From an uncultured Gammaproteobacteria bacterium (lineage in GTDB: Bacteria > Pseudomonadota > Gammaproteobacteria > JACCXJ01): a DNA stretch of 64,000 bases. The notes beneath the pieces were generated by a model, which did no database searches, was not told the origin of the DNA, and saw nothing but the letters and a program-made list of their open reading frames with translations. Below, in pieces: positions 26,009-61,187 of the stretch (positions within the stretch are counted from its first letter, which is position 1; each line of letters starts with the position of its first letter). The position numbers and the translations under genes are program-made. Location of the stretch: NCBI GenBank assembly GCA_963764725.1, contig CAVXTM010000016.1, positions 320,001-384,000 on the forward strand, in the 5' to 3' direction.

Positions 26009-26827
26009 ATGAGTTCGTACCAACAACCGCCGGCCAGCAAACAGTGGAACACCGCGCTCTACGATAGCAAAGCAAACTTCGTCTGGAAGTACGGACGCGG
26101 CGTTGTCGAGTTACTTGCCCCGCGGCCGGGAGAACGAATCCTTGACCTCGGCTGCGGGACTGGCCACCTGACGAACCTGATCGCTCAGGCGGGCGCTGAG
26201 GTCATCGGACTCGACAGATCGGAGTCGATGATCGCTCAGGCACGCTCGCTTTTCCCCCAGCTTCGCTTCGAACTCGGCGACGGCGCCGACTTTCATTTCG
26301 ACCAGTCGTTCGATGCCGTCTTCTCGAACGCGGCGATTCACTGGATGCTAGACCAAACTGCAGTTGCGCGCCGCATCTGGCAAGCGTTGAAGCCGGGCGG
26401 CCGTTTTGTCGCAGAATTCGGCGGTAAAGGAAACGTCGAGGCGATTCGCGCGGCCCTGCGCGAAGCTATTGAAGTGGCAGGCGAGCGCGTTGGGTTAGAA
26501 CCGTTCGCGCGCTACTATCCGAGCATCGCCGAGCATGCAGCGCTTCTTGAGGCGCAAGGCTTTCGCGTGACCTTCGCCTCGCACTTTGATCGGCCCACAC
26601 AACTCGACGACGGTGGGGCTGGACTTCGCAACTGGTTGTTCACCTTCGCGGATAATGTTGTTGAGTCGCTGCCCGCTAGCAAACGCGATCAGATCATCGC
26701 CGCAGTAGAAGACGGGCTGCGCTCGCGGTTGTTCAGGGACGGGAGTTGGTACGCCGACTACCGGCGGATCCGCATCGCGGCGACTAAATCAGAGGGTCGG
26801 GGGTTCGAGTCCCTCCGGGCGCCATAA
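26009..26827 (+). CDS. Class I SAM-dependent methyltransferase (Tam-like)
   Basis: ILDLGCGTG, FDAVFSNAAIHW, LKPGGRFVAEFGG, ADYRRIR; last codons run through a tRNA fragment. Confidence 0.88.
   Translation: MSSYQQPPASKQWNTALYDSKANFVWKYGRGVVELLAPRPGERILDLGCGTGHLTNLIAQAGAEVIGLDRSESMIAQARSLFPQLRFELGDGADFHFDQSFDAVFSNAAIHWMLDQTAVARRIWQALKPGGRFVAEFGGKGNVEAIRAALREAIEVAGERVGLEPFARYYPSIAEHAALLEAQGFRVTFASHFDRPTQLDDGGAGLRNWLFTFADNVVESLPASKRDQIIAAVEDGLRSRLFRDGSWYADYRRIRIAATKSEGRGFESLRAP
26787..26824 (+). other. Orphan tRNA 3'-half (tRNA-Arg-like), att-site scar
   Basis: AATCAGAGGGTCGGGGGTTCGAGTCCCTCCGGGCGCCA: 3' anticodon stem, T-arm, acceptor strand, CCA; no D-arm or 5' strand. Confidence 0.75.
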
Positions 26828-37987: not shown

Positions 37988-38113
37988 ATGAACTTCCCCA
38001 TCCAACGCACTTTGTTGCTACTGACGGCCAGCCTGCTGCTCACCGCCTGCGCCCTGACCCGTGTCGAACCGCCGCCGCCTGTGACAGCACCAACAGCGGA
38101 GGCCCGCGTATGA
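37988..38113 (+). pseudogene. 41-codon lipoprotein stub, probable remnant of the original outer-membrane factor gene
   Basis: MNFPIQRTLLLLTASLLLTAC lipobox and Pro-rich linker; stop overlaps the ATG of the next gene. Confidence 0.6.
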
Positions 38114-40441: not shown

Positions 40442-41011
40442 ATGAATCGATCCAAACCCCTGAACTACCTGGAGGCCGCGGCCCGCTGGTTCGGGCGCAG
40501 AACGGACGACCTCGACAGCGCTACACGCAAGGCACTCGACCGCGCCGCGCGCCGCCAGACGCTGACTGAAGACCCTAATCGCAAGCTAGACGAGCAGGCC
40601 ACCTTCGGCGAGCGGATGGCCGACCGCGTGGCTCAAATCGGCGGGTCCTGGACCTTTATCACGATCTTCGGCCTGTTCCTGCTCGGTTGGGCGGTGCTCA
40701 ATACCGAAATCCTCGGCAAGACCGCCTTCGACCCTTACCCCTATATTTTTCTCAACCTGATTCTGTCCATGCTCGCTGCCATCCAGGCGCCGATCATCAT
40801 GATGAGCCAGAGCCGTCTGGCGGTGAAGGACCGGCAGATGGCGGCCCACGATTACGAGGTGAATCTGAAAACCGAGATCGAGATCATGGCGCTGCACGAA
40901 AAGATGGATGCGATGCGTTCGGAGCATCTGATGACAATCGTTGCACAACAGCAGACGCAGATTGAGCTGATGACGCGGTTGCTGCAACAGTCCAATTCTC
41001 GCGACGCCTGA
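40442..41011 (+). CDS. DUF1003 family membrane protein
   Basis: ADRVAQIGGSWTFI, FDPYPYIFLNL, QAPIIMMSQ, DYEVNLK. Confidence 0.9.
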   Translation: MNRSKPLNYLEAAARWFGRRTDDLDSATRKALDRAARRQTLTEDPNRKLDEQATFGERMADRVAQIGGSWTFITIFGLFLLGWAVLNTEILGKTAFDPYPYIFLNLILSMLAAIQAPIIMMSQSRLAVKDRQMAAHDYEVNLKTEIEIMALHEKMDAMRSEHLMTIVAQQQTQIELMTRLLQQSNSRDA

Positions 41012-41261
41012 CAAGAGGGGACTGAACGATGGGCAAAAGACACTCCGACCGCCATTCGGGAAAACGCGGCGGCTGGTTGCGGGCAGCAGCCATGACCACG
41101 GTGCTGCTCGTCTTTCAGCTAGGTCAATCCAGAATCTTTTTTGCCATTCCGCTGCAGGCGACAAGTGCTGATTTCTCCGTCGCGATGGTCGCTCTTACCT
41201 AATCACGAACCGTTCCCCTGAAGACTTGAAGCAGCTTTGTTGGGACCGGATCTTCTGCAAA

Positions 41262-43859
41262 ATGAACGATGAGCGCAGAACCGGTATCGGCGAAGATGCG
41301 CCCGTAGCGAGTGGGCGTTTTCACCGTATCCTCATGCCGCTAATATCGCTAACCCTTTTTTTCGTTGCGATCGCAGCGATTCATCACTTATTGGCGGAGG
41401 TCAGTTATCCGCAACTGGTCGCGGAACTGAAGGCGCTGTCCTGGAACCAGTTGTTACTGGCGCTTTTATTCACTGCCAGCAGTTTCACGGCCTTGATAGG
41501 CTACGATTGGTCAGCGCTTGCTTATATTGGACGCAAGCTTCCCTTCCCGACGGTCGCGTTGGGTTCTTTTTGTGGCTACGCGATTTCGAATACCGTGGGG
41601 TTGAGCATACTTTCGGGAGGGTCTGTGCGCTACCGATTCTATCTCTCTGCAGGACTCGATGCGGCCGATATAGCGCGCGTGTCGGTGTTTTCGGTTCTGG
41701 CGCTGAGTCTCGGTATCTACCTGGTCGGTGCCGCGGCTTTGGTTATCCATCCAGACCTCGTCGACAGTTTCTTTGGGATCCCGCGGGGCGTGTTGCGCAC
41801 GATCGCGATCGCGGCTTTGGTCTTGCTGTTCGCGTTAGTGGTAATTACCTTTGTTCGACCTGCCCGCATCAAAATCGGTCCCTGGGATCTGCCGATCCCA
41901 AGTGGCCCAGTGACCGTTGTTCAGCTCGTGGTATCGGTGATCGATATCGTCTCGGCGGGTGCCTGCTTATACGTCCTAATTGACCATCCGCAGGTGCCAT
42001 TTCTCGCGTTCCTCGTGGTCTATGCGGTGGCACTCATGATCGGGGTCTCAAGCCACGTGCCGGGGGGTCTGGGGGTATTCGAAAGCGTTATGCTGCTCGC
42101 CCTGCACGATTCCGTATCGCCCGAAAACCTCGCGGCCGCGATGCTGGCCTATCGGGTGATCTATCACGTCATCCCGTTGGTGCTCGCAATCTTCGTGTTA
42201 GTCGGTCGCGAGCTAGCGGAACGGGCCTCCCCCATCGTTGGGGCGGTGCGTTACATCCATTCCTGGAGCTCGAAGCTGGTGCCGCCGTTGCTGGCCGGGT
42301 TGGCATTTTGCAACGGCATAGTATTACTCGTATCCACAGCGACGCCTGCCGTCCCGGAGCGGCTTAAGGCGATGAAAGCCTTCATGCCGCTTGCCGTTGT
42401 GGAGATATCCACGATCTCCGGCTCGGTAGTCGGTCTGGGACTGCTCCTAATCGCCCGAGGGCTCTATAGCAGGCTAAACGGCGCCTATGTCATGGCGTTG
42501 CTACTTTGCCTTGCCGGTAGTGTTTTTTCTTTAGCCAAGGGTATCGACTATGAAGAAGGCGTAATTCTGCTTGGGACCGCGTTGCTGCTATTCCTCTGTC
42601 GGCGTGAGTTTTATCGACGCACCGTGCTGATGAATTCGCCTTTTACAGCGGGTTGGATACTCTCCATCGTCAGTGCCGTAGGCGCTACCTACTGGATCAC
42701 CATATTCTCCTACAAGCACGTCGAATACGCTCATGAACTGTGGTGGCAATTCGAGTACAACGCAGAAGTGTCGCGTTCGCTTCGGGCCGGACTCGCCGTG
42801 ACCATTGCCTTGTTCATACTGGGAATAGACCGACTGCTGAAGCGGCCGCAACATGCGCCGAGTTTGTCCTCAACAGGCGATTTGGACAAGGCCGAAGCCA
42901 TCGTGCGAGCCCAGGACAACGTCGACGGCAACCTGGCCTTGATGGGCGACAAACATCTGCTGTTTTCCGACACCGGCGACGCGTTCATCATGTATGGAGT
43001 TAGGGGCACAAGCTGGATCGCGCTCGGTGACCCTATTGGACCGGCGCCGGTAGCGGATGAGCTGGCGTGGCGGTTTCGCGAATTGGCCGACCGTGAGGGC
43101 GGCCGGATCGCGTTTTATCAGACCTCTCCTGAGACCTTGCCCTTGTACTTGGATATGGGATTGGTGCCGTTGAAGGTTGGGGAGGAAGCGCTAGTGCCAC
43201 TTGAGACGTTTTCCCTCCAGGGTGCGAAGCGTAAAGGCCTTAGGCACGCAATGAATCGCGGCGAACACGACGGGCTCAGCTTCGAGATCCTGCCCCGCGA
43301 GACTGTTCCCGCACATATGGAAGAGCTGGCTGCGGTGTCGGCGAACTGGTTGGCGCTGAAGAACACGCGGGAGAAGCGGTTTTCACTGGGTGCCTTCGAT
43401 CCCAATTACATCAAGCGCTTTGCTGTTGCCGTCGCGCGGCACGGGACCCGGATCGTGGCGTTTGCGACCGTGATATCGACCGATACGAAAGCCGAAGCCT
43501 CCATCGATCTGATGCGGCATACGCACGAGGCGCCAAGCTCAGCGATGATGTTCCTGTTCATCAATCTGATTCTGTGCTTCAAGGCACAGGGATTTCGGCG
43601 TTTTGCCCTGGGTTTGGCACCGCTATCGGGATTGGAAACTCATCCCTTGGCGCCGGTGTGGCATCGCTTTGGTCACCTCATCTACAACCGTGGCGAGAGG
43701 TTCTACAATTTTCGTGGCCTCAGAGAATTCAAGGATAAGTTTGATCCCGTGTGGGAACCTCGCTATCTTGCAACATCCGGAGGTATTAGTCCGTTGCTCG
43801 TGATCACGGACGTGGCGACGCTGATTGGGGGGGGTATCACCGGCGTGTTCAAAAAATGA
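41262..43859 (+). CDS. mprF: Bifunctional aminoacyl(lysyl)-phosphatidylglycerol flippase/synthase
   Basis: Multi-TM flippase (SGGSVRYR, HVPGGLGVFE, YRVIY) plus C-terminal synthase (GDK, GDPIG, KVGEEA, IDLMRH, APLSG, FYNFRGLREFKDKF). Confidence 0.95.
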   Translation: MNDERRTGIGEDAPVASGRFHRILMPLISLTLFFVAIAAIHHLLAEVSYPQLVAELKALSWNQLLLALLFTASSFTALIGYDWSALAYIGRKLPFPTVALGSFCGYAISNTVGLSILSGGSVRYRFYLSAGLDAADIARVSVFSVLALSLGIYLVGAAALVIHPDLVDSFFGIPRGVLRTIAIAALVLLFALVVITFVRPARIKIGPWDLPIPSGPVTVVQLVVSVIDIVSAGACLYVLIDHPQVPFLAFLVVYAVALMIGVSSHVPGGLGVFESVMLLALHDSVSPENLAAAMLAYRVIYHVIPLVLAIFVLVGRELAERASPIVGAVRYIHSWSSKLVPPLLAGLAFCNGIVLLVSTATPAVPERLKAMKAFMPLAVVEISTISGSVVGLGLLLIARGLYSRLNGAYVMALLLCLAGSVFSLAKGIDYEEGVILLGTALLLFLCRREFYRRTVLMNSPFTAGWILSIVSAVGATYWITIFSYKHVEYAHELWWQFEYNAEVSRSLRAGLAVTIALFILGIDRLLKRPQHAPSLSSTGDLDKAEAIVRAQDNVDGNLALMGDKHLLFSDTGDAFIMYGVRGTSWIALGDPIGPAPVADELAWRFRELADREGGRIAFYQTSPETLPLYLDMGLVPLKVGEEALVPLETFSLQGAKRKGLRHAMNRGEHDGLSFEILPRETVPAHMEELAAVSANWLALKNTREKRFSLGAFDPNYIKRFAVAVARHGTRIVAFATVISTDTKAEASIDLMRHTHEAPSSAMMFLFINLILCFKAQGFRRFALGLAPLSGLETHPLAPVWHRFGHLIYNRGERFYNFRGLREFKDKFDPVWEPRYLATSGGISPLLVITDVATLIGGGITGVFKK

Positions 43860-45340
43860 CTATAGTCTCGCGTTACGGGACGTTGGATTCTCGAGTGCAC
43901 CGCTACCTATTCCCGACTATCGTGGCTTTCTTCATACTGTGCTCGCTGGCGCAGTCCGGTTGTACCGAATCCAGCCTAGAGCCCATGAGTATCGAGGAGT
44001 TTGGGCACATTGAGGTCTACCGCCCAAAGGACCCACCCAAAGGTCTCGTAATGCTGCTCTCCGGTGATGCCGGCTGGGACAAAAACATGGCGGAGCTGGC
44101 TATTAAAGTCATGGAGCTGGACTATTTGGTCGCCGGCATCGATACGCGCAATTACCTTCGCCGATTGACGACCGAAACCCAAGCTTGCAGCAACCCAGGA
44201 TTGGATTTTGCCGCCCTGGGTAAACACCTGCAAAAGGACGCCGGTCGCGGCAGCCTCAAGCCACCGATCCTGGTCGGCGTGTCATCGGGTGCCAGCGTGG
44301 CTTATGCCGCCGTCGCCCAGGCTTCCGCTCGGACTTTCCACGCTGCCGTTAGCCTGGACTTTTGTCCTACACTTCCTTCAAAACTACTATTCTGCAAGGG
44401 GCAAGGCCTCAAAGCCTCAACTGGCTCCGACAGCAAGGGGACGGTATTCTCGCCCAACAAGCAACTACAGACGCCGTGGTTCGTCTTTCAAGACCCACAC
44501 TATCACGGTTGCGACATGGATAGCGCGAACGGGTTTATTCGACAAATCGATAACGTCAAACTGGTTGTGGGGTCATTCAGGCCGGAAGCGGACTCACAAC
44601 CGGATTTACGCCAACAATTCCTGGCATTGATGGAATGGTTGGATCCAGGGATTGCCAACCAGGCTGAATCCACAACCGATTTATCCGGCGTGCCGCTCGT
44701 GGAGGTACCTGCCACGGTCGGCGGTGAGTACCTAGCGCTGATCCTGACCGGTGATGGCGGTTGGGCGGCACTGGACAAGGCCGTTGCTTCCCGGCTCGTG
44801 CGCGGGCATATCAGCACGCTGGGTTGGGATTCTCTGAGCTATTTCTGGCGCGCTCGCACACCGGACGAAGCGGGCGCCGATCTGGAGCGGAGTTTGCGCC
44901 ATTATCTTGTAGCCTGGGAAAAACAACGGGTCTTATTGATCGGCTATTCATTCGGTGCCAACGCGCTACCGTTTATGGCCAATCGCTTGCCGCCGGATCT
45001 GCGTGGGCGCATCGAGCTGGTAGTGCTCCTCGGTCCCGGGCCAAGCGCTTCATTTGAGTTCCATTTGACGGATTGGCTAGGGAGTTCGAGTTCAGCTAAG
45101 CGATATCCGATCCTCACGGAGTTGCAGAAACTAACGTGGACCAAAGTGCTTTGTCTGTCGGGTCAACAGGATGAGTACAGCATTTGTCCGACGCTTAACC
45201 TCCCCAACGTTACCGTAGAACAAATGCCGGGCGATCATCATTTCAATGACGACTATGGCAGCCTCGTGTCGAGGATCCTTGCGCTGTTACCCGAACATGC
45301 CCTTGGCAGCACAACACCGAGCGTTACGGAATCGCAATAG
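43856..45340 (+). CDS. acvB: AcvB/VirJ family aminoacyl-phosphatidylglycerol hydrolase
   Basis: TGDGGW, SYFW...TP, GYSFGA nucleophile, PGDHHF; start overlaps mprF stop (ATGA). Confidence 0.9.
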   Translation: MTIVSRYGTLDSRVHRYLFPTIVAFFILCSLAQSGCTESSLEPMSIEEFGHIEVYRPKDPPKGLVMLLSGDAGWDKNMAELAIKVMELDYLVAGIDTRNYLRRLTTETQACSNPGLDFAALGKHLQKDAGRGSLKPPILVGVSSGASVAYAAVAQASARTFHAAVSLDFCPTLPSKLLFCKGQGLKASTGSDSKGTVFSPNKQLQTPWFVFQDPHYHGCDMDSANGFIRQIDNVKLVVGSFRPEADSQPDLRQQFLALMEWLDPGIANQAESTTDLSGVPLVEVPATVGGEYLALILTGDGGWAALDKAVASRLVRGHISTLGWDSLSYFWRARTPDEAGADLERSLRHYLVAWEKQRVLLIGYSFGANALPFMANRLPPDLRGRIELVVLLGPGPSASFEFHLTDWLGSSSSAKRYPILTELQKLTWTKVLCLSGQQDEYSICPTLNLPNVTVEQMPGDHHFNDDYGSLVSRILALLPEHALGSTTPSVTESQ

Positions 45341-45350
45341 GTGGGTATCC

Positions 45351-48300
45351 ATGCACCACACTGACGTCCTGTCTGTCGCGCAGGGACGCTTTTGGCGTCT
45401 TGGTTTGAGCGCTGTGGGCGTGGCGCTAGCGCTGGGCTCGGTGCTTTGCGTCTACACCGGTGCCTTAGTCGATGGTGTTCAGCCTTGGTTGCTGGGGGCT
45501 CTCGCTGGCCTATTTTTGGCGTTTGCCTTAGGTGACCGTTGGTCGCCTATCGCCGTGCCAGTCGCGGCGGCGATCGTGACCGGCTTGTTCAGCGCCTCCG
45601 TCAGTCCGGAGGCAAAGCTATGGCAGGCTCCCGCCTCTTGGGCTGAGTTAACTGTACTGACTCCGCAGGGGGCGGTGTTAGGCTGTCTCTTGTATTTCGG
45701 CGTTGCGCTGTGGTGTATGGTCCGCTTCGGGCGGTCGCTGTCACTCATCGCCAATCTCTCGCTGCTCGCCACACCTTATCTCTTCAATCTGCTGCTGGTG
45801 CTGGCCGCTCACGGTATCACGCTTGGGCTCGGACGTACCGTTCTGGGTACCGGTTTGCCCGATGCGATCGCCTCTGGTCTGGGCCGCACGATGATTCTGT
45901 TTGTCTTCAACGAAGCCCTGATGCTGGGTCTGGGTTTGTTGATGGATCGGCGCTGGACCCGATCCTGGCGTCTGCATCTGCTCGTCCTGGGCAGTTCCGC
46001 TTTGGCGGCCTTCTCGCCGGTCGTCGCGGACTTAGGCTCCACCGAAACGCTCTCGCGCTGGGCTGTGGTTGCGCGCCTGGGTCCGATGGTGTTAACCGGG
46101 GCCCTGGCGCAGGCAGGATTGTGGGCGCAAGTTTTTCTTGTCACCGGCATGCTGCTCGATACGCTGCGTGGACGGCGCCCAACCTGGGCCGCAGGCTATG
46201 GCCACTGGTATGCCGGCGCGGTGCGGGGGGCAGTCTACGGCGGCCTGTTCGTGCTGCTGGTGCAGTTGGGTGCGCTCATTTGGGGTTCCCCGGCAGTTGT
46301 CGGCTGGCTGCGCAGCTACCCTGTGCTCGGGGGCGCGCTTCTGGGCCTACTGCTATTTCCACTGGCCAAAACTATCCTCGAAAGTTTCGACGGTAGCGCG
46401 CCTTTCTTCGCCCGCTTTGCGGGAGCGATGCGCGAGCCGATCAACTATCTGCGCGGCTTGATTGCCGGCTTAGGGCTCGGGATAGCCTTGACGCACGATT
46501 TGCCGACGCTCTCTGGCGGTTTACGCTTTGCGCTCGGCTTTGTGATCGGAGCAGCAGCGTATGCTGGGGCGGACGCGCTGCGGGATATCCATTCAGTGCT
46601 CGCCCATCAGCGCCAGCGAATGCAGTCTTGGCGGGTGTACGGGTTGGGCGCGGTGCTCGGGGGATTCGTGGGTGGGGCGCTCGCGTGGTATTTCGATGCC
46701 GCCCAATTACAGGTAGTCGCCGAGAAATTTGTCACCTACGCCATGGCCTATTTCCCGGCAGTCGGCAAGGCTACTACGAGCTATGTGACTTATCCGCTGT
46801 TCAGCAAGTGGGGTGCAATCGATCTGGGAAGCGTCTCGGGGGGCGTCAAACTCCTGTATGCGGAATCCCTGTCGGGCGTGATCAACTGGTCGATCGCCGC
46901 GCCGCTGTTCAGCATCAATCTGGTGCTGCTTACCGCACTGTTCGAGCGCAGCTTCCGCCCGCTCAAGGCCTTGTTCAGCGCTGCCGGATTAGCGACTGTC
47001 GTGGAACAGGCGGTGCGCGTTCTGCGCTGGGGCCTGTGGATGGCACCGATCATTTATACATTCCTGCGCCTTGCCGCAGACCCGAGCTGGTACAACCAGG
47101 ATGGCGCGGTGCGCAGCGCGTTGGCGAGCGTACAGTCCGTGCGGTTTTCACCGGATGAGTTCCGCGCCTGGAGCCTCGAGTTGTTTCTTGGGCTGCTCGC
47201 CTATGATTGGTTGCGGGTGCTGATCTGGTTCGACCATATGGGCCTCCGGGTGGCGACGCTGGTCAATCTTTCCTTCGTTGGCGGCGATGCGCTGGATGAA
47301 AAAGCGTCGCGATTTCTAGGCCACTCGGCGCGCACGCGCTGCATACCAGAAGCCATACGCCGTTTTCTCACTTGGGCACCGCTGTTGATTCCTTTCTATA
47401 TACCGCGCGGCGGCGAGTGGGACTATGTATGGGATCGGGCGGCATCTCTGCAGACTGCTCCGCAATCCCTGCTGCCCGCGGTTGCATCTTTGCTGCTCGT
47501 TTATCAGTTGGCCGCTGTTGGCGCGATTTTGGGGGTGGCAGCCGTGTGGCTGCTGCGCCGGAGCAAAAAGGAATTGGTGCCGTCGCCAGCCGCGACCGAC
47601 CCTTACTTCGTACTCGGCAACGGGCAATACACGGCGGAGTACGGCTGGGATGGCCGCGGCTTTAGCCACGTGACCAGCACGGTGCGCCCCGGCTTCGAGC
47701 TCGACCTCTCTCGAAGGCCGGACGATCCGTTGCAGTTGCGAGGCAAGTTTTTCTTTCTGCGCGAACTGGACACCGAAGGCAAGGCCGCCGGTGAGCTCTG
47801 GTCACTCGGGTCCGAGCCCATGCAGAAGCGAGGCTCCGACTATTCGGTGACGCAGCCCTCTCCTAGTACGCTGCGTATCGTCAACAGCTACGGCAGGCTG
47901 CGCGCGGAAGCTCGGGTGACTCTCGATGCCCGCGACGCCGTGGAAAACTGGGCCATCTATCTAACCAACCTTGAGCAGCGTGCGCGCATCGTCGAAATTA
48001 CGAGTTACCAAGAGCTCGCTGTGGGGCCAATCGATGCCTACCGCCGCTCGCCCTTCTTTGCGGCAATGCACGTGGGTACCTGCTTCGCGGCCCCATTGAG
48101 CGCGATCATCGCGCGCAATCGCCTCATGCGAAACAATGCAAAAGATCCCGCCTTGCAGCGCATGTGCCGCGAAGTCGGTTTTCATGCGGTGCGCGCGAAC
48201 GAAGGCGTGCGCCTTGTGGGATACGAGGACTCCCGCACCCATTTCATCGGCTTAGGCACATTGAGGCAGCCGGCCGTATTCTCTGGCCAGGCACTGCGCG

Positions 48301-50825
48301 ATCCTGCCGATGAAGGGTTGCTCTATAGCTTCGATCCGGCGGCAAGCTTGAGACTTAGGGTGGAGTTGCCGCCAGGTGCGACCGTCGAGGTACCCTTCCT
48401 GGACGGTTATGCCGAGGACGAGCATCGAGCGGCGGCTTTGATTGCTCGGCATCTCGAGGTTGCGAAGCCAGATGAGGCCACTCTAAAAGCGAGCTTCGCA
48501 CGCAGACGTAGACTGCACGCCGCTCCCAGGCGCACCACAGAGCACAGCGGTTTCTCTGAGGATGGGCGTGAACTTTCGGTGCCTTGCGACGCGCAGCGTC
48601 CTTGGGCGCATCTCGTCGCCAATCCGCTGGGCCAAGGCTTTATCGCGGGTAGCGATGGAGAGATCTTTTCCTTCGCCGGCAATGCGCAGCAGAACGCCCT
48701 GTCGCCTTTCAGTCTGGACAGCATGCCGGCGCAGCTCCCTGGGCAGGCGATTTATGTCTTTGATATCAAAACTGGGGTCGCCGAGACTGCGGGCTTCGTG
48801 CCTTACCGCAACCAGGATGCCAAACACGAGGTTTTCTTCGGGCTGGGTTATGCGCGTTACCGCAAAGAGAGCGTTGGACTTAAGCTCGATCTGACCGCCT
48901 TTGTCCCGCTGGACTGCGCAGTGGAGATCAAACTGCTGCGTATCCGCAATTTGGGCACGACAGCGAGGCGCTTTAGGGTCGTCCCTTACGTGGAAATGGT
49001 GTTGGCGGAAGTGCCGCCGGACAGCTGTGGTCGTGTGCACGCCTGGGCGGACCCGACGCCCGGCGTGCTCTATTTCGAAAATGCCAGTAACGATTTTCGC
49101 AAGGGTGTGGCTTTCGTCGCCGTGAACCTTAGATGCCAGACACACGAGACCGTCCGCGAGCGCTTCGTGGGCGGCGAGGGGCGCGATCTCGCGCGACCGT
49201 ATATGGTCGAGCATGGCCAACCCGATAGGAGGCAGGTTGATGACGGACGCCGCATAGCGAGCTTTGTCGTCGAGCTGGAGATTGCCGCGGGAAAGGAGGT
49301 GACGGTGGTGCTCGCGCTCGGTCAAGCCGCCGACCAGGCGCAGGCGACTGCGCTCGCGCGCGCCTATCTCGAACCGCGGGCGGCAGAACTAGCGCTGGAA
49401 AAAACTAAGGCGTGGTGGAACGAGACGCTATCCGTCGTGCGCGTCGAGACCAATGAACCGGCTTTTGACCGCTTGGTGAACGACTGGCTGCCGTACCAGA
49501 TCCTGTGCGCACGGTTATGGGGGCGCACCGGATCCAGCCAGCGCAGCGGCGCCTACGGCTTCCGCGACCAGTTGCAGGACGTTCTGCCACTCACCTTCCT
49601 CAAGCCCGAGTGGGCGCGCAGCCAGATCGTGCTACACGCGGCGCAGCAATTTATCGAGGGCGATTGCGTCAAGTGGTGGCATCCCTCGTGGGAAGGCAAG
49701 ACCGGAATCGCGGTTCGCACCCGCGCGTCCGATCCGCATCTTTGGTTACCCTATGTGGCGGCTCGCTACGTAGAAGCTAGTGGCGACACCGGCGTTCTGG
49801 AAGAGCAAGTCGCCTTCCTGGAAGGCAGGCCGGTGCCGAAGGGTCATGAAGGATTCGTGTTCGCGCCCAGGCCCTCGCGCGATACCGGTTCGGTTTACGA
49901 GCATTGCCGGCGCGCGGTGGAATACACTCTCGCGCGGCGCGGCGCGCATGATCTCCCGCTCCTCGGCTCTGGCGACTGGAACGATGGCCTCGATGTGCCC
50001 GGCATCAAGGGCACGGGGGAAAGCGTATGGCTGGGCTTCTTCTTGCACGATGTGCTTGTCAGGTTCGCGAGTCTCGCCGCACGCTGCGAAGGTCAAGAAG
50101 CCAAACGACGCTACCTCAAGGAAGCGAGAAACCTATCTGTGGCGCTTGGGGCGATGTGGCGCGAGGACGGGTATCTACGCGCGATTACCGATGAGGGCGA
50201 AGAATTCAAACTGTGCAGCGCGCTCACGACCGCTTGGCCACTCCTATCCGGGGCAGTGGATGCGACGCGCGCCCACGCAGTGCTTGAGATGGGAATCGAG
50301 CGTCTGGAGAAAAGCAACCGCGTGCTACTGCTGACCCCGCCTTTCACGGAGCACTCGCTGCCTTATCCTGGGCGTATTGCAGAGTATCCGCCCGGGGTGC
50401 GCGAAAATGGGGGGCAGTACTCGCACGGCGTCTCGTGGCTAGTGGATGCGCTGCTGCGCTGCGCCGAAGAAACGCCCGAACTAGCCGAACGCTGCCGCGC
50501 GTACGCCGTGGATTTGTGGATCAAGATATCGCCGCTAAGCAAGAGCGATCAGACAGACCTCTACGGACTGCCGCCGCATCAGCAGCCGGCGGATGTTTAC
50601 GACGGTCCGGGCTACGAAGGTCGCGGTGGCTGGAGTTGGTACACGGGCGCAGCTGCGCGCATGCTCTCCACCGCCTACGAAATCATCGGACTGCGGATCG
50701 AAGGCGGCAAGCTCAAGCTGCTTCAAGATCTTTTCCTGCGCAAGGGGCGTTTGCAGGTCAAGCGCCTCTGCTATCGCGGGCAGCAGATCGAGGGGAGAGA
50801 GAATGAAGGCGGATGGCGGAACTAA
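45351..50825 (+). CDS. 1824-aa fusion: polytopic membrane domain plus GH94 glycoside phosphorylase (Cgs/NdvB C-terminal type)
   Basis: Hydrophobic N-terminal ~750 aa; VLGNGQY...GRGFS and GFSEDGRE...PWAHLVAN sandwich domains; SGAYGFRDQLQD, GDWNDG, RENGGQYSH, GRGGWSWYTG catalytic-domain motifs. Confidence 0.85.
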   Translation: MHHTDVLSVAQGRFWRLGLSAVGVALALGSVLCVYTGALVDGVQPWLLGALAGLFLAFALGDRWSPIAVPVAAAIVTGLFSASVSPEAKLWQAPASWAELTVLTPQGAVLGCLLYFGVALWCMVRFGRSLSLIANLSLLATPYLFNLLLVLAAHGITLGLGRTVLGTGLPDAIASGLGRTMILFVFNEALMLGLGLLMDRRWTRSWRLHLLVLGSSALAAFSPVVADLGSTETLSRWAVVARLGPMVLTGALAQAGLWAQVFLVTGMLLDTLRGRRPTWAAGYGHWYAGAVRGAVYGGLFVLLVQLGALIWGSPAVVGWLRSYPVLGGALLGLLLFPLAKTILESFDGSAPFFARFAGAMREPINYLRGLIAGLGLGIALTHDLPTLSGGLRFALGFVIGAAAYAGADALRDIHSVLAHQRQRMQSWRVYGLGAVLGGFVGGALAWYFDAAQLQVVAEKFVTYAMAYFPAVGKATTSYVTYPLFSKWGAIDLGSVSGGVKLLYAESLSGVINWSIAAPLFSINLVLLTALFERSFRPLKALFSAAGLATVVEQAVRVLRWGLWMAPIIYTFLRLAADPSWYNQDGAVRSALASVQSVRFSPDEFRAWSLELFLGLLAYDWLRVLIWFDHMGLRVATLVNLSFVGGDALDEKASRFLGHSARTRCIPEAIRRFLTWAPLLIPFYIPRGGEWDYVWDRAASLQTAPQSLLPAVASLLLVYQLAAVGAILGVAAVWLLRRSKKELVPSPAATDPYFVLGNGQYTAEYGWDGRGFSHVTSTVRPGFELDLSRRPDDPLQLRGKFFFLRELDTEGKAAGELWSLGSEPMQKRGSDYSVTQPSPSTLRIVNSYGRLRAEARVTLDARDAVENWAIYLTNLEQRARIVEITSYQELAVGPIDAYRRSPFFAAMHVGTCFAAPLSAIIARNRLMRNNAKDPALQRMCREVGFHAVRANEGVRLVGYEDSRTHFIGLGTLRQPAVFSGQALRDPADEGLLYSFDPAASLRLRVELPPGATVEVPFLDGYAEDEHRAAALIARHLEVAKPDEATLKASFARRRRLHAAPRRTTEHSGFSEDGRELSVPCDAQRPWAHLVANPLGQGFIAGSDGEIFSFAGNAQQNALSPFSLDSMPAQLPGQAIYVFDIKTGVAETAGFVPYRNQDAKHEVFFGLGYARYRKESVGLKLDLTAFVPLDCAVEIKLLRIRNLGTTARRFRVVPYVEMVLAEVPPDSCGRVHAWADPTPGVLYFENASNDFRKGVAFVAVNLRCQTHETVRERFVGGEGRDLARPYMVEHGQPDRRQVDDGRRIASFVVELEIAAGKEVTVVLALGQAADQAQATALARAYLEPRAAELALEKTKAWWNETLSVVRVETNEPAFDRLVNDWLPYQILCARLWGRTGSSQRSGAYGFRDQLQDVLPLTFLKPEWARSQIVLHAAQQFIEGDCVKWWHPSWEGKTGIAVRTRASDPHLWLPYVAARYVEASGDTGVLEEQVAFLEGRPVPKGHEGFVFAPRPSRDTGSVYEHCRRAVEYTLARRGAHDLPLLGSGDWNDGLDVPGIKGTGESVWLGFFLHDVLVRFASLAARCEGQEAKRRYLKEARNLSVALGAMWREDGYLRAITDEGEEFKLCSALTTAWPLLSGAVDATRAHAVLEMGIERLEKSNRVLLLTPPFTEHSLPYPGRIAEYPPGVRENGGQYSHGVSWLVDALLRCAEETPELAERCRAYAVDLWIKISPLSKSDQTDLYGLPPHQQPADVYDGPGYEGRGGWSWYTGAAARMLSTAYEIIGLRIEGGKLKLLQDLFLRKGRLQVKRLCYRGQQIEGRENEGGWRN

Positions 50826-50850
50826 ATCCTTAGGAAGGAGGCCAACAAAA

Positions 50851-52395
50851 ATGTGGTTTGAGCTCATCTCTTTTAAAACGCGGCCAGATGTAAATTACTG
50901 GATGCCTATGACCATTGTTCTCACAAGCCTGATTTCGACACCAGTCTTCGCTTTCGGGCTCGAAGACGTTACCGGCATGGCCCACGGGCTTGCGGAAAAG
51001 GATTATGAGATGCCCAGTGACAATCTGCCGCCCGCACTCAAGGAAATCACGTACGACCAGTTTCGAGACATCCGCTTCAGGGATGAAAAATCGCTGTGGC
51101 GATCCGACAAGCTACCTTTCGAGGTCAAGTTCTTCCACGCAGGGCTTTATTTCCGTCACCGAATCAGGGTCAACCTGGTCGAAGCGGGAAACGTGAAGCT
51201 GCTTCGCTTCGATTCCAAAGACTTCCACTACGGCAAGAACACCTTTGACACCAGCAAGTTCGGAGATGTCGGCTTCGCGGGTTTTCGCGTGCACTACCCG
51301 ATTAACACCAAGGAGTACAAGGACGAGGTTGCGGTGTTTCTGGGCGCGAGCTATTTCCGCGCCGTGGGCAAAGGCCAGCGCTACGGACTTTCGGCGCGCG
51401 GGCTCGCGATGGATACGGCGGAGGACGCGGGTGAGGAATTCCCTGCCTTCAGAGAATTCTGGCTCGAGCGTCCGGCAGCGAATGCCAAACACCTTGTCGT
51501 GTACGCGCTGCTCGATTCCAAACGCGTGACCGGGGCGTATCAGTTCACTATCTACCCGGGTGAGACGACACACATGGATGTACAGGCGCATATCTTCCAG
51601 CGCGTTAAGGGCGCCAAGCTGGGCATCGCTCCGCTGACCGCGATGTTCTATTTCGCAGAGAACCAGCCCGCGCCTTCCGACGACTACCGTCCTGAAGTAC
51701 ATGATTCTGACGGGCTGCTCATCCAGACCGATCACAGCGAGTGGATCTGGCGTCCGCTGCTGAATCCGCGAAGGCTGTTGGTGACGAGCTTCGGGCTGCA
51801 TAATCCGCGCGGCTTCGGGCTTATGCAACGCGACCGCGATTTCCGAAACTACCAGGATCTTGAGGCGCGCTACGAGCTGCGGCCGAGCGCATGGATCACG
51901 CCCAAAGGCAACTGGGGACCGGGTCGCGTGGAGCTCGTGCTCATCCCCACGCCGGACGAGACCCACGACAATGTCGTTGCCTATTGGGTACCTAAGGAGG
52001 TGGCGGAACCCAAGCAGGCCATGAGTTTTCAGTACCGCCTGTCCTGGCAGCACGACGAGCTTGCCGAGCCTCCGCATGCCGCAGTAGTGCAATCGCGCGG
52101 CGGGCACGGCTGGCGTGAATATTCCGATGATTCCCAATTGTTCATGATCGACTTCGAGGGGCCTGCGCTAAAAAACCTCAAGCCGGACACCGCACTCGAG
52201 AGCGCGGTATGGGTAGGTGATACGGGTGAGCTTCTCGAGCACCAGGTGTTTCGCAACGATGCGACCGGAGGCTGGCGGGTGTCGCTGCGCATGCGCCGCA
52301 AACAGAGCGACCAGCCGGTCGAGATTCGCGTCGGGCTGCGTAGCGACGGCAAAGATATCTCTGAAACCTGGAGTTATCTGCTGCCCCCGCCGTAA
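50851..52395 (+). CDS. opgG: Periplasmic glucan biosynthesis protein G (OpgG/D, GH186)
   Basis: AGGAGG SD; YDQFRDIRF, FLGASYFRA, YGLSARG, EEFP.F.EFW, RPEVHDSDG, ETHDNVVAYW, SETWSY. Confidence 0.92.
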   Translation: MWFELISFKTRPDVNYWMPMTIVLTSLISTPVFAFGLEDVTGMAHGLAEKDYEMPSDNLPPALKEITYDQFRDIRFRDEKSLWRSDKLPFEVKFFHAGLYFRHRIRVNLVEAGNVKLLRFDSKDFHYGKNTFDTSKFGDVGFAGFRVHYPINTKEYKDEVAVFLGASYFRAVGKGQRYGLSARGLAMDTAEDAGEEFPAFREFWLERPAANAKHLVVYALLDSKRVTGAYQFTIYPGETTHMDVQAHIFQRVKGAKLGIAPLTAMFYFAENQPAPSDDYRPEVHDSDGLLIQTDHSEWIWRPLLNPRRLLVTSFGLHNPRGFGLMQRDRDFRNYQDLEARYELRPSAWITPKGNWGPGRVELVLIPTPDETHDNVVAYWVPKEVAEPKQAMSFQYRLSWQHDELAEPPHAAVVQSRGGHGWREYSDDSQLFMIDFEGPALKNLKPDTALESAVWVGDTGELLEHQVFRNDATGGWRVSLRMRRKQSDQPVEIRVGLRSDGKDISETWSYLLPPP

Positions 52396-52416
52396 CGGCC
52401 GGGGGGCCTCTGTCCT

Positions 52417-52457
52417 CGAACCAGATGGTCGGGGTTCGAGTCCCTCGAGGCGCGCCA
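52417..52457 (+). other. Second orphan tRNA 3'-half (tRNA-Arg-like), att-site scar
   Basis: CGAACCAGATGGTCGGGGTTCGAGTCCCTCGAGGCGCGCCA, followed by AATCAATAGGTTA and an AT-rich tract. Confidence 0.72.
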
Positions 52458-52672
52458 AATCAATAGGTTAAAGAAGTATCTAGAATAGTTTTAGATTTTT
52501 GTACGATTCCTTGTCGTGCCCATCCTCGTAGCGCTGTAGCAGTGTATGACTAATCCAGCGGTTACATTCAATCGAATATCTGGTTTCCACCGGCTATTTT
52601 CAGCGTGAAGTTGGACGAATCAAATACTCGGCAAGCCAGGCGCGGTCCGGGTGTGGCGACTCTCGCTACCAA

Positions 52673-56864: not shown

Positions 56865-57555
56865 GCTAACTTGGTCGGCGGCGACTAAGCGGCCGCGCTT
56901 ATAGGGAAAATATTACAAAAAAGGCGGTCGAGCGAACCGTGTGGAGTACGTGGGACGGTGATTACTGAATTCGATCTAGCGGAGGCCTTCAAATTCCAAT
57001 TTGGACAACCGGAGATTATTTTAACCTCTTCCTGAATGCTCCAAGGGAATCAATTCGAGGTCGAGCAGTCCCAGCCTAGAGTCCAGGCGTTAAAGGCAAG
57101 TTCCCGGCACAGCAATTGGTTCATCCTCAGCATGCCGTCGGAACTCCATCGCTGTCAAGAAAAGTTAAAGCATGACTACGCTGAAAGGCGCAAAAACCCT
57201 ATTCTGCTAAGCTGCAAGTGGCGCGGCCGGACGGGCGTGATTTCACGGCTGACTTCAAAAAGGCAAGCGGCTTGGTTACAAAAAAGCTGGGAATTGCTCG
57301 TGGGTACTCTGAGTTTCGTCATTGCGGGCGAAGCGAGGCAATCTGACGTGCGGCGCCCATCCTGGAATGCTTTTGATCCAGGATCCTGGAACCCGAAGAG
57401 CCTGGCTGCTGTGCGGTAAAGACACTCCAGGATGCCTTCGTCACCAGTGGACTAGGATGAACCCAACAGATTTCTCGAACGAACCTGTTTCCGTCACTTC
57501 GAGCGACGGCGCGAAGGTAGGCGCTCTTGCAGCAAGGCGCCGGGAAGCTCGCCCC

Positions 57556-59076
57556 ATGCGTCGGTCCTGGACGTTGTTTCTCGCCGTCACGTTCGGCTGT
57601 GTCACAGGCGCGGCCGCGACACGGACCGAATCCCAGTCGAAATCCGCGACGCAGCCAGCGTTTACCACGAATACGGTGATTGAAGCCGCGCGCAGCGCGG
57701 CGGCGAAGCCCTGGGCGCCGAAGAACCTGGATGGCTCACCGGCGCTGCAACAACTGACTTACGACCAGTATCGGGACATCCGCGTCAACGCGGACGAAGG
57801 CATCTGGCGAAATGAGCGGGTACCGTTTCGCGTCGAGATCCTGCCGGCGGGCTTTATCTTCAAGATCCCAGTCAAGGTGTCGGTCGTGGAAAACCGGATT
57901 GCCCGGAGTGTTCCCGGCGCGCCCGGAATGTTCTCTCTCGGCCCGCTGGTTGCCAAGCAACTCGCCAATCAGTCGTTGCCGCTCTCCGGTTTTCGCATGC
58001 GTACGCGCCTGAACTCACGCTCCGTCTGGGACGAATTCCTGGTGTTTCAGGGCGCCTCCTACTTCCGCGCGATCGACAAGGGCGGGGCGTACGGGCTGTC
58101 GGCGCGTGGGCTTGCAATCCGCACGGCCCACGCGATGGGCGAGGAATTTCCGGCGTTCACAGAGTTCTGGATTGAGCGGCCCGCAGCGAACGCCTCCGGT
58201 ATCGTGGTGCACGCGCTGCTCGACAGCGAATCGACGACCGGCGCCTACCGGTTTTCCATCATTCCCGGCAGCGAGACGATCATAGACATCGACGTCACGC
58301 TGTTTCCCCGCACAGCGCTCGACCATGTCGGCATTGCGCCGCTCGCGTCGATGTTCCTGTTCGATGAATCTGAGCGCACGCGCATCGACGATTATCGCGA
58401 TGAGGTCCACGACTCCGACGGTCTGCAAATCCTGCTCGCTTCCGGCGAACGCGTATGGCGGCCGCTGCGCAATCCGACGCAGTTGCAGGTATCGAGTTTC
58501 ACTTCCGAAGCGCCGAAAGGGTTCGGCCTGATTCAGCGCTCACGCAGCGCTTCCGACTATCACGATCTCGAAGCGCACTACGAGGATCGGGCGAGCGCCT
58601 GGATCGAACCGACGAGCCAATGGGGCGAAGGTTCGGTGCAGCTGGTCGAGATTCCGACCGACAACGCGGCGAACGACAACATCGTCGCATTCTGGCGTCC
58701 GAAGCACGTGATACCGGCGGGCAAAGCGTGGCATACCTCGTATCGCATACGCTGGAATTCACAGCCAAAGCTGACGCTGGCACTCGGCAAGGCGACGGCG
58801 ACGCGCACCGGCCCGAGCTTCGACGGCAAGCGGCGTATCTTCGTCATCGACTTCAGCGGCACCGGCCGTTCGATCGAGGGACTGAAGCTCGACGCCAGCA
58901 CGTCGGCGGGCAAGCTCTCGAACCTGGTGTTGCAACCGAACCCGCTCACAAAGGGTGTGCGTGCGAGCTTCGAGCTCGACCCGGGCGACGCTGGGGTCGC
59001 CGAACTGCGTCTACGTGTATTGCGAGGCAATCGTCCCGCGAGCGAGACCTGGCTGTATCGATGGACAGCCAGCTGA
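57556..59076 (+). CDS. Second OpgG/OpgD family (GH186) periplasmic glucan protein
   Basis: Signal peptide MRRSWTLFLAV; YDQYRDIR, FQGASYFRA, YGLSARG, EVHDSDG, NDNIVAFW, SETWLYRW. Confidence 0.92.
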   Translation: MRRSWTLFLAVTFGCVTGAAATRTESQSKSATQPAFTTNTVIEAARSAAAKPWAPKNLDGSPALQQLTYDQYRDIRVNADEGIWRNERVPFRVEILPAGFIFKIPVKVSVVENRIARSVPGAPGMFSLGPLVAKQLANQSLPLSGFRMRTRLNSRSVWDEFLVFQGASYFRAIDKGGAYGLSARGLAIRTAHAMGEEFPAFTEFWIERPAANASGIVVHALLDSESTTGAYRFSIIPGSETIIDIDVTLFPRTALDHVGIAPLASMFLFDESERTRIDDYRDEVHDSDGLQILLASGERVWRPLRNPTQLQVSSFTSEAPKGFGLIQRSRSASDYHDLEAHYEDRASAWIEPTSQWGEGSVQLVEIPTDNAANDNIVAFWRPKHVIPAGKAWHTSYRIRWNSQPKLTLALGKATATRTGPSFDGKRRIFVIDFSGTGRSIEGLKLDASTSAGKLSNLVLQPNPLTKGVRASFELDPGDAGVAELRLRVLRGNRPASETWLYRWTAS

Positions 59077-61187
59077 AGTCGGCGATTCCGCCGGAAGGCG
59101 GCGACGTAGTGCGCGGCGGCATGCCTTTCGAGCGCCCGCTCGACATGCCAGTGCAGAATCTGCGTCGCGCGCCAGCGTCGCTGCAGATGGAAGCCACGCC
59201 GGCGCGCGCGATTCTTGCGCGCGCATTGACTATCCTCGGTGCACTTGCCATCACCGGCTACGGCGTCTACGAGATGCTCGGCATTGTGAGCGTCGCGAAC
59301 ATGACGTTTCTGCAAGGCGTTATGATCCTGTTCTTCGCAGTCACGCTCGCGTGGATCGCTTTCGCAGCCGCATCGACGATCACTGGCTTTCTCGTGCCTC
59401 CGCCGCGCGGCAAGCCGGACACGCCGATCGCGGGCAGTCGCACGGCGCTCGTCATGCCGATCTACAACGAAGATCCCGCGCGCACGACAGCAGGCTTGCA
59501 GGCGATGGCGGAAGCACTTGCGCAGAACGACGCCGCCCAACATTTCGAAATCGTCATCATTTCCGATTCGACGAACGTCGACGCCTGGATCAACGAATCA
59601 CTCGCGGCCGATGAACTGCGTCGCACACTGCGCGAAACCGTTCCGGTCTGGTATAGGCGGCGCTGGCACAACGCCGCGCGCAAGGCTGGCAACGTCGAAG
59701 AATTCCTGAAGCGCTGGGGCGGGCGTTACGACTACATGATCATGCTCGACGCCGACAGCCTGATGTCTGCTTCGACGCTGGTCGAGCTCGTGCGCCGCAT
59801 GCAGGCGGATCCGCGTCTGGGCATTCTGCAAACCGTACCGATGCTGATCGGCCATACGAGCGTGTTCGCACGCATTCAACAATTTTCAGGCCGCGTCTAT
59901 GGCGCACTTATCGCGCGCGGCGTCGCCGCGTGGTCGGGTAATGAAGGAAACTACTGGGGCCACAACGCGATCATTCGCGTTGCCGCGTTCGCGCAGGCCT
60001 GCGGTTTGCCGCAGCTGCCGGGGCGCCGACCATTCGGCGGCCATGTATTGTCACACGACTTTGTCGAAGCGGCGTTGATTCGGCGCGCCGGCTGGAAAGT
60101 GCGCATGGCGCCGGAGTTGGACGGTTCGTGGGAAGAAAGTCCGCCATCGCTGGTCGATGTCGCAATCCGCGATCGTCGCTGGGCGCAGGGCAATCTGCAG
60201 CATTCAAAGATCATCGGCGCGGACGGCCTTGCGTTTACGAATCGCGCGCACTTCTTCATCGGCATCATGAGTTATCTCTCATCGCCCTTATGGCTGATGC
60301 TGCTAATCGTAGGCTTTGCGCTGACGCTGCAGGCGAGGCTGATTCGTCCCGAGTATTTCAGTCATACGTTCCAGCTCTTTCCCGACTGGCCGCAATTCGA
60401 CGCCGAGCGCATGATCGAACTCTTCATCTTCACGATGATCGTGCTGTTGACGCCGAAGGTGCTTGGGCTAGTCCGGACGCTGTTCACACCGAAGGTCCGC
60501 AAGGGCTGCGGCGGCTTCCTCGGCGTGACCGCAAGCACGGCGCTCGAGACGATCATTTCTGCGCTGTATGCACCGATCATGATGCTCCTGCAAACGCATC
60601 ACGTACTCGAAATTCTCACGGGGCGCGACTCCGACTGGAATTCGCAGCGCCGGCACGCCTCGATGACCGCCTGGGCCGAAGCGTGGAGCGTGCATTGGCC
60701 GCACCTCATCATGGGTGTACTGATCGGGGTGACGGCGTATCTGATTTCGCCGATATTGCTCGCCTGGCTCTCGCCGACGCTGGTAGGCCTGGTGCTCGCA
60801 GTACCACTGTCGAAACTAAGCGGCAGCGTCGCGGTCGGAAAGTTGTTCGCCTGGTTCGGCCTTTTGCGCACGCCGGAAGAAAAGCACACACCACCAGTGG
60901 TGCGCCGGCGCGATGAATTATTGGGCCACGCAGCGGCGCCGCAGAAAGACGGCCTGCGCTACCTCGCGCGCAATCGCCAGGCGCGCTACGCCCACATTTC
61001 CGGCAATCTGCCGCGCCCCGCTGAATCGCGCGGTCACCCTGATCCGCACCGCCTCACAGCAGAATGCAAAGTGCTGGATGCAAAAACGCTCAATGAAGTT
61101 CTTGCATGGTTGGGCCCCGCCGAACGGGTGCACGTCGCCGGGGATCCGCGATTGCTGGAGCGGATTGCGGAATTGCCGGATAGCTAG
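59061..61187 (+). CDS. opgH: Glucans biosynthesis glucosyltransferase H (GT2)
   Basis: MPIYNED, RKAGN, LDADS, YWGHNA, SHDFVEA, RDRRWAQGN; start overlaps the upstream opg gene. Confidence 0.95.
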   Translation: MDSQLKSAIPPEGGDVVRGGMPFERPLDMPVQNLRRAPASLQMEATPARAILARALTILGALAITGYGVYEMLGIVSVANMTFLQGVMILFFAVTLAWIAFAAASTITGFLVPPPRGKPDTPIAGSRTALVMPIYNEDPARTTAGLQAMAEALAQNDAAQHFEIVIISDSTNVDAWINESLAADELRRTLRETVPVWYRRRWHNAARKAGNVEEFLKRWGGRYDYMIMLDADSLMSASTLVELVRRMQADPRLGILQTVPMLIGHTSVFARIQQFSGRVYGALIARGVAAWSGNEGNYWGHNAIIRVAAFAQACGLPQLPGRRPFGGHVLSHDFVEAALIRRAGWKVRMAPELDGSWEESPPSLVDVAIRDRRWAQGNLQHSKIIGADGLAFTNRAHFFIGIMSYLSSPLWLMLLIVGFALTLQARLIRPEYFSHTFQLFPDWPQFDAERMIELFIFTMIVLLTPKVLGLVRTLFTPKVRKGCGGFLGVTASTALETIISALYAPIMMLLQTHHVLEILTGRDSDWNSQRRHASMTAWAEAWSVHWPHLIMGVLIGVTAYLISPILLAWLSPTLVGLVLAVPLSKLSGSVAVGKLFAWFGLLRTPEEKHTPPVVRRRDELLGHAAAPQKDGLRYLARNRQARYAHISGNLPRPAESRGHPDPHRLTAECKVLDAKTLNEVLAWLGPAERVHVAGDPRLLERIAELPDS

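Follow-up and report, generated by a model that had tools for sequence, protein, structure and literature searches.

We analyzed a 64,000-nt stretch of one contig from an uncultured gammaproteobacterium (hereafter, the window) and, within it, a string of four genes at positions 41262-52395. The four open reading frames (ORFs) lie on the plus strand, are separated by gaps of -4, 10 and 25 nt as calculated from their coordinates, and encode an aminoacyl-phosphatidylglycerol synthase/flippase (MprF), a VirJ-type hydrolase (AcvB), a fusion of a large membrane domain with a phosphorylase of family GH94, and the periplasmic glucan protein OpgG (Table 1). The original prediction correctly recognized the four co-oriented genes with these gaps, all present in the ORF calls, their domain assignments and the tRNA scar behind the last gene; it took the string for a single envelope system without opgH, in which the fusion protein substitutes for the glucan synthase OpgH. 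Our comparative analysis points to a different reading, namely that the string probably consists of two independent two-gene units that are neighbors in an accessory, island-like stretch of one genome. The first unit, the mprF(lpiA)-acvB pair, is well known and serves to make and to hydrolyze aminoacyl-phosphatidylglycerol. The second unit, a membrane-GH94 gene followed by opgG, would serve the OpgH pathway in glucan trimming or retrieval. The four-gene 'system' should not be treated as a conserved unit.

Table 1. Features of the gene string and of its surroundings in the window.
Feature	Position	Strand	Evidence and remarks
mprF (lpiA-type aminoacyl-phosphatidylglycerol synthase/flippase)	41262..43859	+	NF033480; Pfam LPG_synthase_C and LPG_synthase_TM
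acvB/virJ-type hydrolase gene	43856..45340	+	PF06057 (VirJ); 4-nt overlap with mprF
membrane-GH94 gene	45351..50825	+	1824 codons; PF06165 (twice) and PF17167 in the C-terminal ~1080 residues only; no Pfam family in residues 1 to ~780
N-terminal polytopic membrane domain of the membrane-GH94 fusion	45351..47555	+	residues 1 to ~735
GH94 phosphorylase part of the fusion, Cgs-type	47556..50825	+	two supersandwich domains and the catalytic barrel
opgG (GH186, E. coli OpgG type)	50851..52395	+	PF04349; Sec-like signal peptide at the N-terminus
two-gene module, membrane-GH94 and opgG, 7.06 kb	45350..52407	+	92-93% identity with near relatives, in other contexts there
tRNA-Arg(tcg)-like 3' fragment, att-like scar, right edge of the module	52416..52457	+	blastn against the genome's tRNA-Arg
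second tRNA-Arg 3' fragment, same orientation, 25.6 kb upstream	26795..26822	+	28 nt, 100%
second opgG/opgD-family paralog, paired with opgH	57553..59076	+	PF04349, 572 bits; ORF open from 57322
opgH (mdoH), GT2 glucan synthase	~59091..61187	+	NF003956, 881.8 bits; NF003958, 787 bits

The start codon of the membrane-GH94 gene is supported by the fact that homology with its relatives starts exactly there. Profile matches in the C-terminal part of its product (PF06165, 216.8 bits in two stretches; PF17167, 243.7 bits) account for both the supersandwich and the (alpha/alpha)6 catalytic domain. Among proteins of known structure, the best match of this part is the cyclic glucan synthase Cgs of A. 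tumefaciens (8rf0, residues 2051-2777; ~725 residues aligned, 373 bits), which scores about twice as high as any other GH94 enzyme, the cellobiose phosphorylases reaching at most 172 bits. Two Cgs residues, D2393 (in GFRDQ) and D2528 (the catalytic acid, in a DWND motif), align with D1406 and D1545 of the fusion protein, and the latter two are invariant in 31 homologs. According to Sedzicki et al. (PMC10901819), D2393 and D2528 were mutated as active-site residues of the GP part of Cgs, which is described there as resembling LpSOGP, and the catalytic Asp of the GH94 domain proved nearly dispensable. The fusion protein resembles Cgs in being an inner-membrane protein with a large C-terminal GH94 part and in keeping the active-site Asp pair; however, Cgs combines six transmembrane (TM) helices with soluble N-terminal domains, whereas the fusion protein has an unrelated polytopic domain of ~735 residues. 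The alignment is confined to Cgs residues 2032-2777, with no match to the cyclase (CY/GH189-type) residues 979-1535; no glycosyltransferase family, GT84 (GT2-like) included, was detected in the 1859-aa ORF or in the membrane domains of 36 homologs; and the protein is ~1000 residues shorter than Cgs and has no Rossmann-like insert. Since GT84, the cyclase domain and the Rossmann-like insert are all lacking, the fusion protein is not a cyclic glucan synthase, and without the GT84 and cyclase domains polymerization from UDP-glucose is impossible for it. Automatic annotation nevertheless labels the family 'cyclic beta-1,2-glucan synthetase', and our analysis corrects this common label on proteins that have neither a synthase nor a cyclase domain. 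No Cgs-sized GH94 protein was found in the window's own genome, and such a protein is present in only 6-9 of 40 genomes that hold the family. The second point of comparison is SOGP, for which the literature describes phosphorolysis of beta-1,2-oligomers to glucose-1-phosphate. Like the fusion protein, SOGP is a GH94 enzyme with an extra N-terminal sandwich domain, but it is soluble and encoded in catabolic sugar-uptake clusters with ABC transporters, whereas the fusion protein has a membrane domain; none of the SOGP chains in the PDB matched it at E 0.01 or better.

The membrane domain contains ~14-16 hydrophobic segments and ~70 positions that are invariant among 36 homologs, many of them Trp, Tyr or Phe. 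A Pfam search of these 36 domains (E ≤ 1) returned only noise, with no family in any member, and the fusion protein matched no NCBIfam family and is thus below the MdoH equivalog cut-off. A PDB profile search returned a single match for the membrane domain, at E 0.94. An AlphaFold (AF2) model of 783 residues is confident, with a mean predicted local distance difference test (pLDDT) score of 84.6 and a predicted template modeling (pTM) score of 0.85. When this model was searched whole, Foldseek yielded no match at E ≤ 1e-3 (best template modeling score ~0.1), and the best VIA-align matches (Z 8.1) were generic helical bundles, which is within noise for helical models; the ESM Atlas gave no usable match. 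No internal repeat was found in the domain by hhalign among its four parts, the sole match being the deliberate overlap of these parts. As judged from the whole-model search, the membrane domain therefore seems to be without a known family or fold relative, although it may contain a known sub-fold. We predict a cytoplasmic location for the GH94 part from the RRSKK stretch behind the last TM helix and from the need of a phosphorylase for cytoplasmic phosphate. The membrane-GH94 family appears to be undescribed: in full-text searching, supplements aside, no GT84-less membrane GH94 protein was encountered in the portions available of the sources covered (including PMC11842490, 10.1101/2025.04.21.649730 and PMC10901819).

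For the 1824-aa protein, a pattern scan of species-representative genomes yielded no fewer than 554 confirmed relatives, of which the best 80 loci were kept. When 10-kb flanks of these loci were searched by tblastn with the window proteins, OpgG was found in 17 of 80 and OpgH in four, and neither MprF nor AcvB in any. Hence, the four-gene linkage is not conserved in the survey of mprF/acvB/opgG co-occurrence, and the partnership of MprF and AcvB with the glucan genes that had been proposed receives no comparative support. Flanking ORFs were also clustered with no families preset at 76 loci, after four had been dropped for which no full-length anchor ORF was called. OpgG is the most frequent neighbor in this set and the only recurrent one that makes functional sense; in 12 of the 76 loci it lies next to the family gene in the same orientation (downstream in seven, upstream in five). 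This adjacency occurs in three of six loci of Gammaproteobacteria/Burkholderiales, in eight of 18 loci of 'delta' lineages (labeled Thermodesulfobacteriota or Myxococcota), and in one of 52 in Alphaproteobacteria and others. The functional tie between the membrane-GH94 protein and OpgG that had been suggested is thus supported by same-strand adjacency in three lineages. The other recurrent neighbors are lineage-specific genes of unrelated functions. In two loci the family gene shares a gene string with the complete glucan gene pair, in the order opgG-opgH-GH94 (L007) or GH94-opgG-opgH (L050). In the OpgG tree (19 rows, long branches), the GH94-adjacent OpgGs fall in several clades. Acidic or peat-type lineages account for many of the holders that are cultured or named (Methylocapsa acidiphila, Rhodoblastus acidophilus, Methylovirgula, Roseiarcus, Lichenihabitans, Methylocystis), which may be a signal of habitat.

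The family is broader than the surveyed loci. A profile of the membrane domain retrieved 552 cluster representatives among 1.84 billion, many of them fragments; all seven scanned representatives of at least 1690 aa carry GH94 domains, and the shorter ones show a partial match or none. Long variants of ~2000-2250 aa (seen in P0147, P0150, P0151, P0157 and P0144) begin with a signal peptide, one to four repeats of a ~170-residue module and extra TM helices, which are followed by the conserved domain. No Pfam family was found for these repeats, including 300 residues of one N-terminal extension. A model of one long-variant N-terminus (pLDDT 80.5) is a beta-sandwich, and Foldseek matched the module to CBM11, CBM22, CBM27 and CIA30 (E 7e-5 to 1e-3, target template modeling score 0.47-0.63; for the three CBM types, E 7e-5 and 0.59-0.63), with which the language-model leads are consistent. 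The combination of CBM-like modules with a signal peptide indicates that some family members expose a glycan-binding part outside the cytoplasm.

The OpgG encoded by the module is a full-length MdoG domain (PF04349, 654.1 bits, profile positions 1-477 of 478) and is closer to E. coli OpgG (8ip2, 534 bits) than to the OpgD structures (330-364 bits). Both MdoG-family genes of the genome lie in the window; they are 41% identical, and the one paired with opgH is the more divergent. OpgH is encoded directly after this second gene and exceeds the NCBIfam cut-off of 864. The description 'without opgH' is therefore true of the gene string and untrue of the window and the genome, which have a canonical opgG-opgH pair 5-9 kb downstream. 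Moreover, 40 family holders spread over at least three phyla all encode an OpgH that scores above the NCBIfam cut-off; with the holders in the two samples described next and the window's own genome, the tally is 45 of 45. In an even sample of 300 Pseudomonadota genomes, OpgH is present in 64 (21%) and the family in two, both with OpgH; in a sample of 200 genomes of Thermodesulfobacteriota, the phylum of G010, the corresponding numbers are six (3%) and two, again both with OpgH, so that the family is held by none of 194 OpgH-negative genomes versus two of six OpgH-positive ones. The holder genomes are related and not independent, and no P-value is attached to this co-occurrence. The location of opgH 6.7 kb downstream of the string and its presence in every holder tested contradict the proposal that the fusion protein stands in for OpgH. 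We regard the family as a probable accessory of the OpgH pathway, a membrane-embedded phosphorylase often associated with OpgG.

The described pathway can be compared with this arrangement as follows. OpgG and OpgD are GH186 beta-1,2-glucanases, and OpgD adjusts the chain length, as stated in PMC10514313. The OpgG-OpgH (MdoGH)/OpgD system is similar in that the module carries an E. coli-type OpgG and the family is found only together with OpgH; it differs in that the described pathway has neither a GH94 enzyme nor another phosphorylase, and the fusion protein would represent an added cytoplasmic phosphorolytic step. To our knowledge, E. coli has no GH94 phosphorylase. In the mechanism that we consider, OpgH would make and export linear beta-1,2-glucan, OpgG would act on it in the periplasm, the membrane domain might hold the glucan chain or pass it across the inner membrane, and the cytoplasmic GH94 domain would release glucose-1-phosphate by phosphorolysis at the non-reducing end of the chain. 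Overall, the glucan would be trimmed or retrieved and in this way turned over. We infer the beta-1,2 specificity, the membrane topology, the passage of the chain and the phosphorolytic direction in vivo. GH94 reactions are reversible; however, cytoplasmic phosphate is far above glucose-1-phosphate, and phosphorolysis is therefore the likelier direction in the cell. Of the two directions originally envisaged for the fusion protein, import and phosphorolysis of OpgG-cut oligomers is retained as a presumed part of our reading, and a substitute synthase that exports glucan made from glucose-1-phosphate is contradicted by the presence of OpgH.

Several points weigh against trimming or retrieval within the OpgH pathway. 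The co-occurrence with OpgH is partly phylogenetic, many holders being related Hyphomicrobiales, and opgH is located far from the family gene in most of them; 64 of 76 loci have no adjacent opgG. The presumed beta-1,2 specificity is borrowed from the nearest solved homolog, and specificities vary within GH94. The conduit role of the membrane domain is conjectural, with no known transporter or channel matched, and the preference for import over export and for degradation over synthesis is likewise our deduction. In addition, since the GH94 Asp of Cgs is nearly dispensable, a scaffold role of the GH94 domain is possible.

Some of these points could also indicate a different substrate of the fusion protein, such as cellodextrin, beta-1,3-glucan or a chitin-type oligomer, with no mechanistic tie to periplasmic glucans; the co-occurrence with OpgH would then reflect shared ancestry and lifestyle. 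The loci without an opgG neighbor and the several specificities known within GH94 would agree with this, as would the resemblance of the long-variant modules to CBM11, which is described as a binder of mixed-linkage and beta-1,4 glucans. However, the distribution in Thermodesulfobacteriota follows OpgH, opgG became a neighbor of the family gene in three lineages, on the upstream as well as the downstream side, and no other GH94 enzyme comes near the Cgs score; we thus consider another substrate quite improbable. A second alternative is length control in the cytoplasm without transport, in which the fusion protein would dock to OpgH and its GH94 domain would trim the nascent chain as the GP domain of Cgs does, the membrane domain being an anchor or docking platform. 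It is suggested by the homology, which is closest to the length-controlling GP domain of Cgs, and by the strict co-occurrence with OpgH. Yet a domain of ~735 residues with ~70 invariant positions, many of them aromatic, is far more than an anchor, the long variants carry extracytoplasmic CBM-like modules, and the partner that recurs is OpgG, a periplasmic protein, and not OpgH, which makes this alternative rather unlikely, though less so than that of another substrate.

A more specific form of the proposed glucan retrieval can be put forward tentatively, as a possibility on the doubtful side: a 'retro-translocon', in which a membrane domain of novel fold would return periplasmic beta-1,2-glucan directly to the fused cytoplasmic phosphorylase. 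In the long variants, the periplasmic CBM-like modules would first capture the glucan, and in many lineages OpgG would first cut it. If this were true, OpgH-bearing bacteria could lower or remodel their glucan pool in an energy-saving manner upon a change of osmolarity or pH, and in the present genome, where the module would have been captured behind mprF-acvB, lipid-charge and glucan remodeling would be co-expressed. The question at stake is how bacteria adjust the quantity and chain length of their osmoregulated periplasmic glucans, and whether they ever take such glucan back. The described pathway (OpgH, OpgG, OpgD and substituting enzymes) has no cytoplasmic degradative step, and the family, which is widespread, found only alongside OpgH and built of a Cgs-type phosphorylase joined to a large membrane domain that matches no known fold, provides a testable candidate for it.

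The first unit of the string is ordinary in its content. Its MprF exceeds the equivalog cut-off for the bifunctional flippase/synthase (NF033480, 925.7 bits versus 600), and the acvB product has a VirJ domain (PF06057, 197.3 bits in the Pfam scan). In PMC13197417, lpiA-acvB is presented as an operon that controls the levels of Lys-phosphatidylglycerol. The gene order and domain content equal those of the lpiA(mprF)-acvB operon of Agrobacterium/Rhizobium, the genes overlapping here by 4 nt; what differs is the position beside a GH94 module, which was found only here. This mprF copy is accessory, being one of four full-length paralogs in the genome and 37-38% identical to the other three. No DNA match to the 3' half of the window's mprF together with acvB was found in the four nearest genomes (G001-G004), which hold only mprF paralogs at 39% identity, the counterparts of the other mprF copies of the window's own genome. 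More generally, window positions 25400-45349 have no match above 71% in these relatives except scattered fragments of less than 300 nt (the longest, 268 nt at 89%), in contrast to the second opgG and opgH, which show 94% DNA identity in G001. The mprF-acvB pair is therefore accessory, as is the group of RND efflux genes on its left side; both lie between the two tRNA-Arg fragments.

The mprF set of this genome is unusually large: the other paralogs are located at C7:42920-45412, C11:130360-132843 and C1:75218-77749, and at C7:56420-57355 there is an additional, truncated copy of the N-terminal part that contains an in-frame TGA. The only other VirJ homolog of the genome is encoded at window positions 27894-29333, is 24% identical to the acvB copy, and sits in a low-GC stretch (24-30 kb, GC 0.52-0.56).

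The borders of the second unit were derived from near-relative loci and from metagenome contigs. Three near-relative loci (L003, L004 and L005) lie in genomes G001-G003, which are flagged as unpublished. The homology of L003 and L004 to the window is confined to 45350 to 52405-52407 (blastn), and their flanks differ, those of L003 being syntenic with contig C15 of the window's own genome and those of L004 matching C11- and C5-like sequence. A stretch of ~60-90 nt upstream of the start codon is common to L003 and L004 and missing from the window, where acvB ends 10 nt before the ATG of the membrane-GH94 gene in place of this upstream region; the right flanks all diverge from ~12 nt past the opgG stop codon. 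At C15:229903-233130, the window's own genome has 3.2 kb of different genes where G001 has the module and 1.5 kb (L003:9816-18633). This spot is variable, and the sharp borders of the module are common to at least four contexts (the window, L003, L004/X3 and X2). An integron-cassette origin of the module was rejected, as the ~12 nt between the opgG stop codon and the end of homology cannot accommodate attC.

Metagenome contigs from four runs of four studies (X1, X2, X3 and X8) were aligned to positions 42000-54000; in no run were more than 0.47 of the sampled words present, and the source sample is probably not among these runs. Module contigs of X2 and X3 start at 45350, with loose ends that resemble the L003-type upstream sequence; at the other side, the module contig of X1 ends at 52407, and X2 and X3 show loose ends at 52398-52407. 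Contigs with acvB-like sequence (X1, X8) diverge at 45336-45345, and no contig in the four runs bridges the acvB|GH94 joint (45341-45350), which is seen in this assembly only. Runs sharing the module are labeled as cave and soil metagenomes. Either this strain alone has the joint, or, which is less likely, the joint is chimeric. If it were an assembly chimera, the four-gene string would exist in no cell; the lack of a spanning contig in four studies and the divergence of both contig types at the joint would be expected in that case. On the other hand, the two types of source do not overlap there and hence have in common no k-mer of the kind that causes graph misjoins, which argues against such a misjoin. 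In addition, the contig spans 513 kb, the stop and start codons at the joint are both intact, and the 10-nt spacer between them has an AGGTGG Shine-Dalgarno-like motif. A chimera is thus unlikely. In a genuine joint, loss of its own upstream region may have put the module under the mprF-acvB promoter in this strain.

The possible read-through also bears on the original prediction in its full form, according to which the four genes make up one envelope system, the fusion protein replaces OpgH and builds and exports glucan from glucose-1-phosphate, and MprF and AcvB give aminoacyl groups or are co-regulated. The four ORFs follow one another closely on a single strand, GH94 catalysis can run in either direction, and no promoter- or terminator-like site above chance was found between the genes: a scan for sigma-70-like promoters and terminators gave two promoter-like sites versus 4.7 expected from shuffled sequences and 15 terminator-like sites versus 15.7 expected. 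Against these observations stand the presence of OpgH in the window and in all 45 holders, the two loci in which the family gene sits beside opgG-opgH (L007 and L050), the absence of MprF and AcvB from all 80 loci and of this mprF-acvB pair from G001-G004, the unbridged joint in four metagenome runs, and the cytoplasmic excess of phosphate over glucose-1-phosphate, which favors phosphorolysis. We consider a single four-gene system highly improbable and favor two independent units.

The scar behind opgG was recovered by blastn against the genome's own tRNA-Arg(tcg), as ARAGORN found no tRNA in the window. Over 43 nt, the fragment at 52416-52457 matches the 3' end of this tRNA (C6:21913-21955) with 91% identity, and it has only a sub-threshold tRNA-like match in Rfam (13.7 bits, E 4.6). 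The second fragment, at 26795-26822, is identical to C6:21917-21944. The stretch bracketed by them has the appearance of an integrative island that has decayed, or of several islands in tandem. It contains RND efflux genes, a DUF1003 gene, mprF-acvB and the GH94 module, and nothing closely similar to its DNA was found in the nearest genomes. The tRNA-Arg fragment recurs on contigs C5 and C10 of the same genome, and no integrase was seen. Among the RND efflux genes, one AcrB-family pump gene is intact (31756-34896), and a second one is split into overlapping ORFs at 34893-35837 and 35506-37980, which cover profile positions 3-191 and 206-1020 and probably result from a frameshift or an assembly error.

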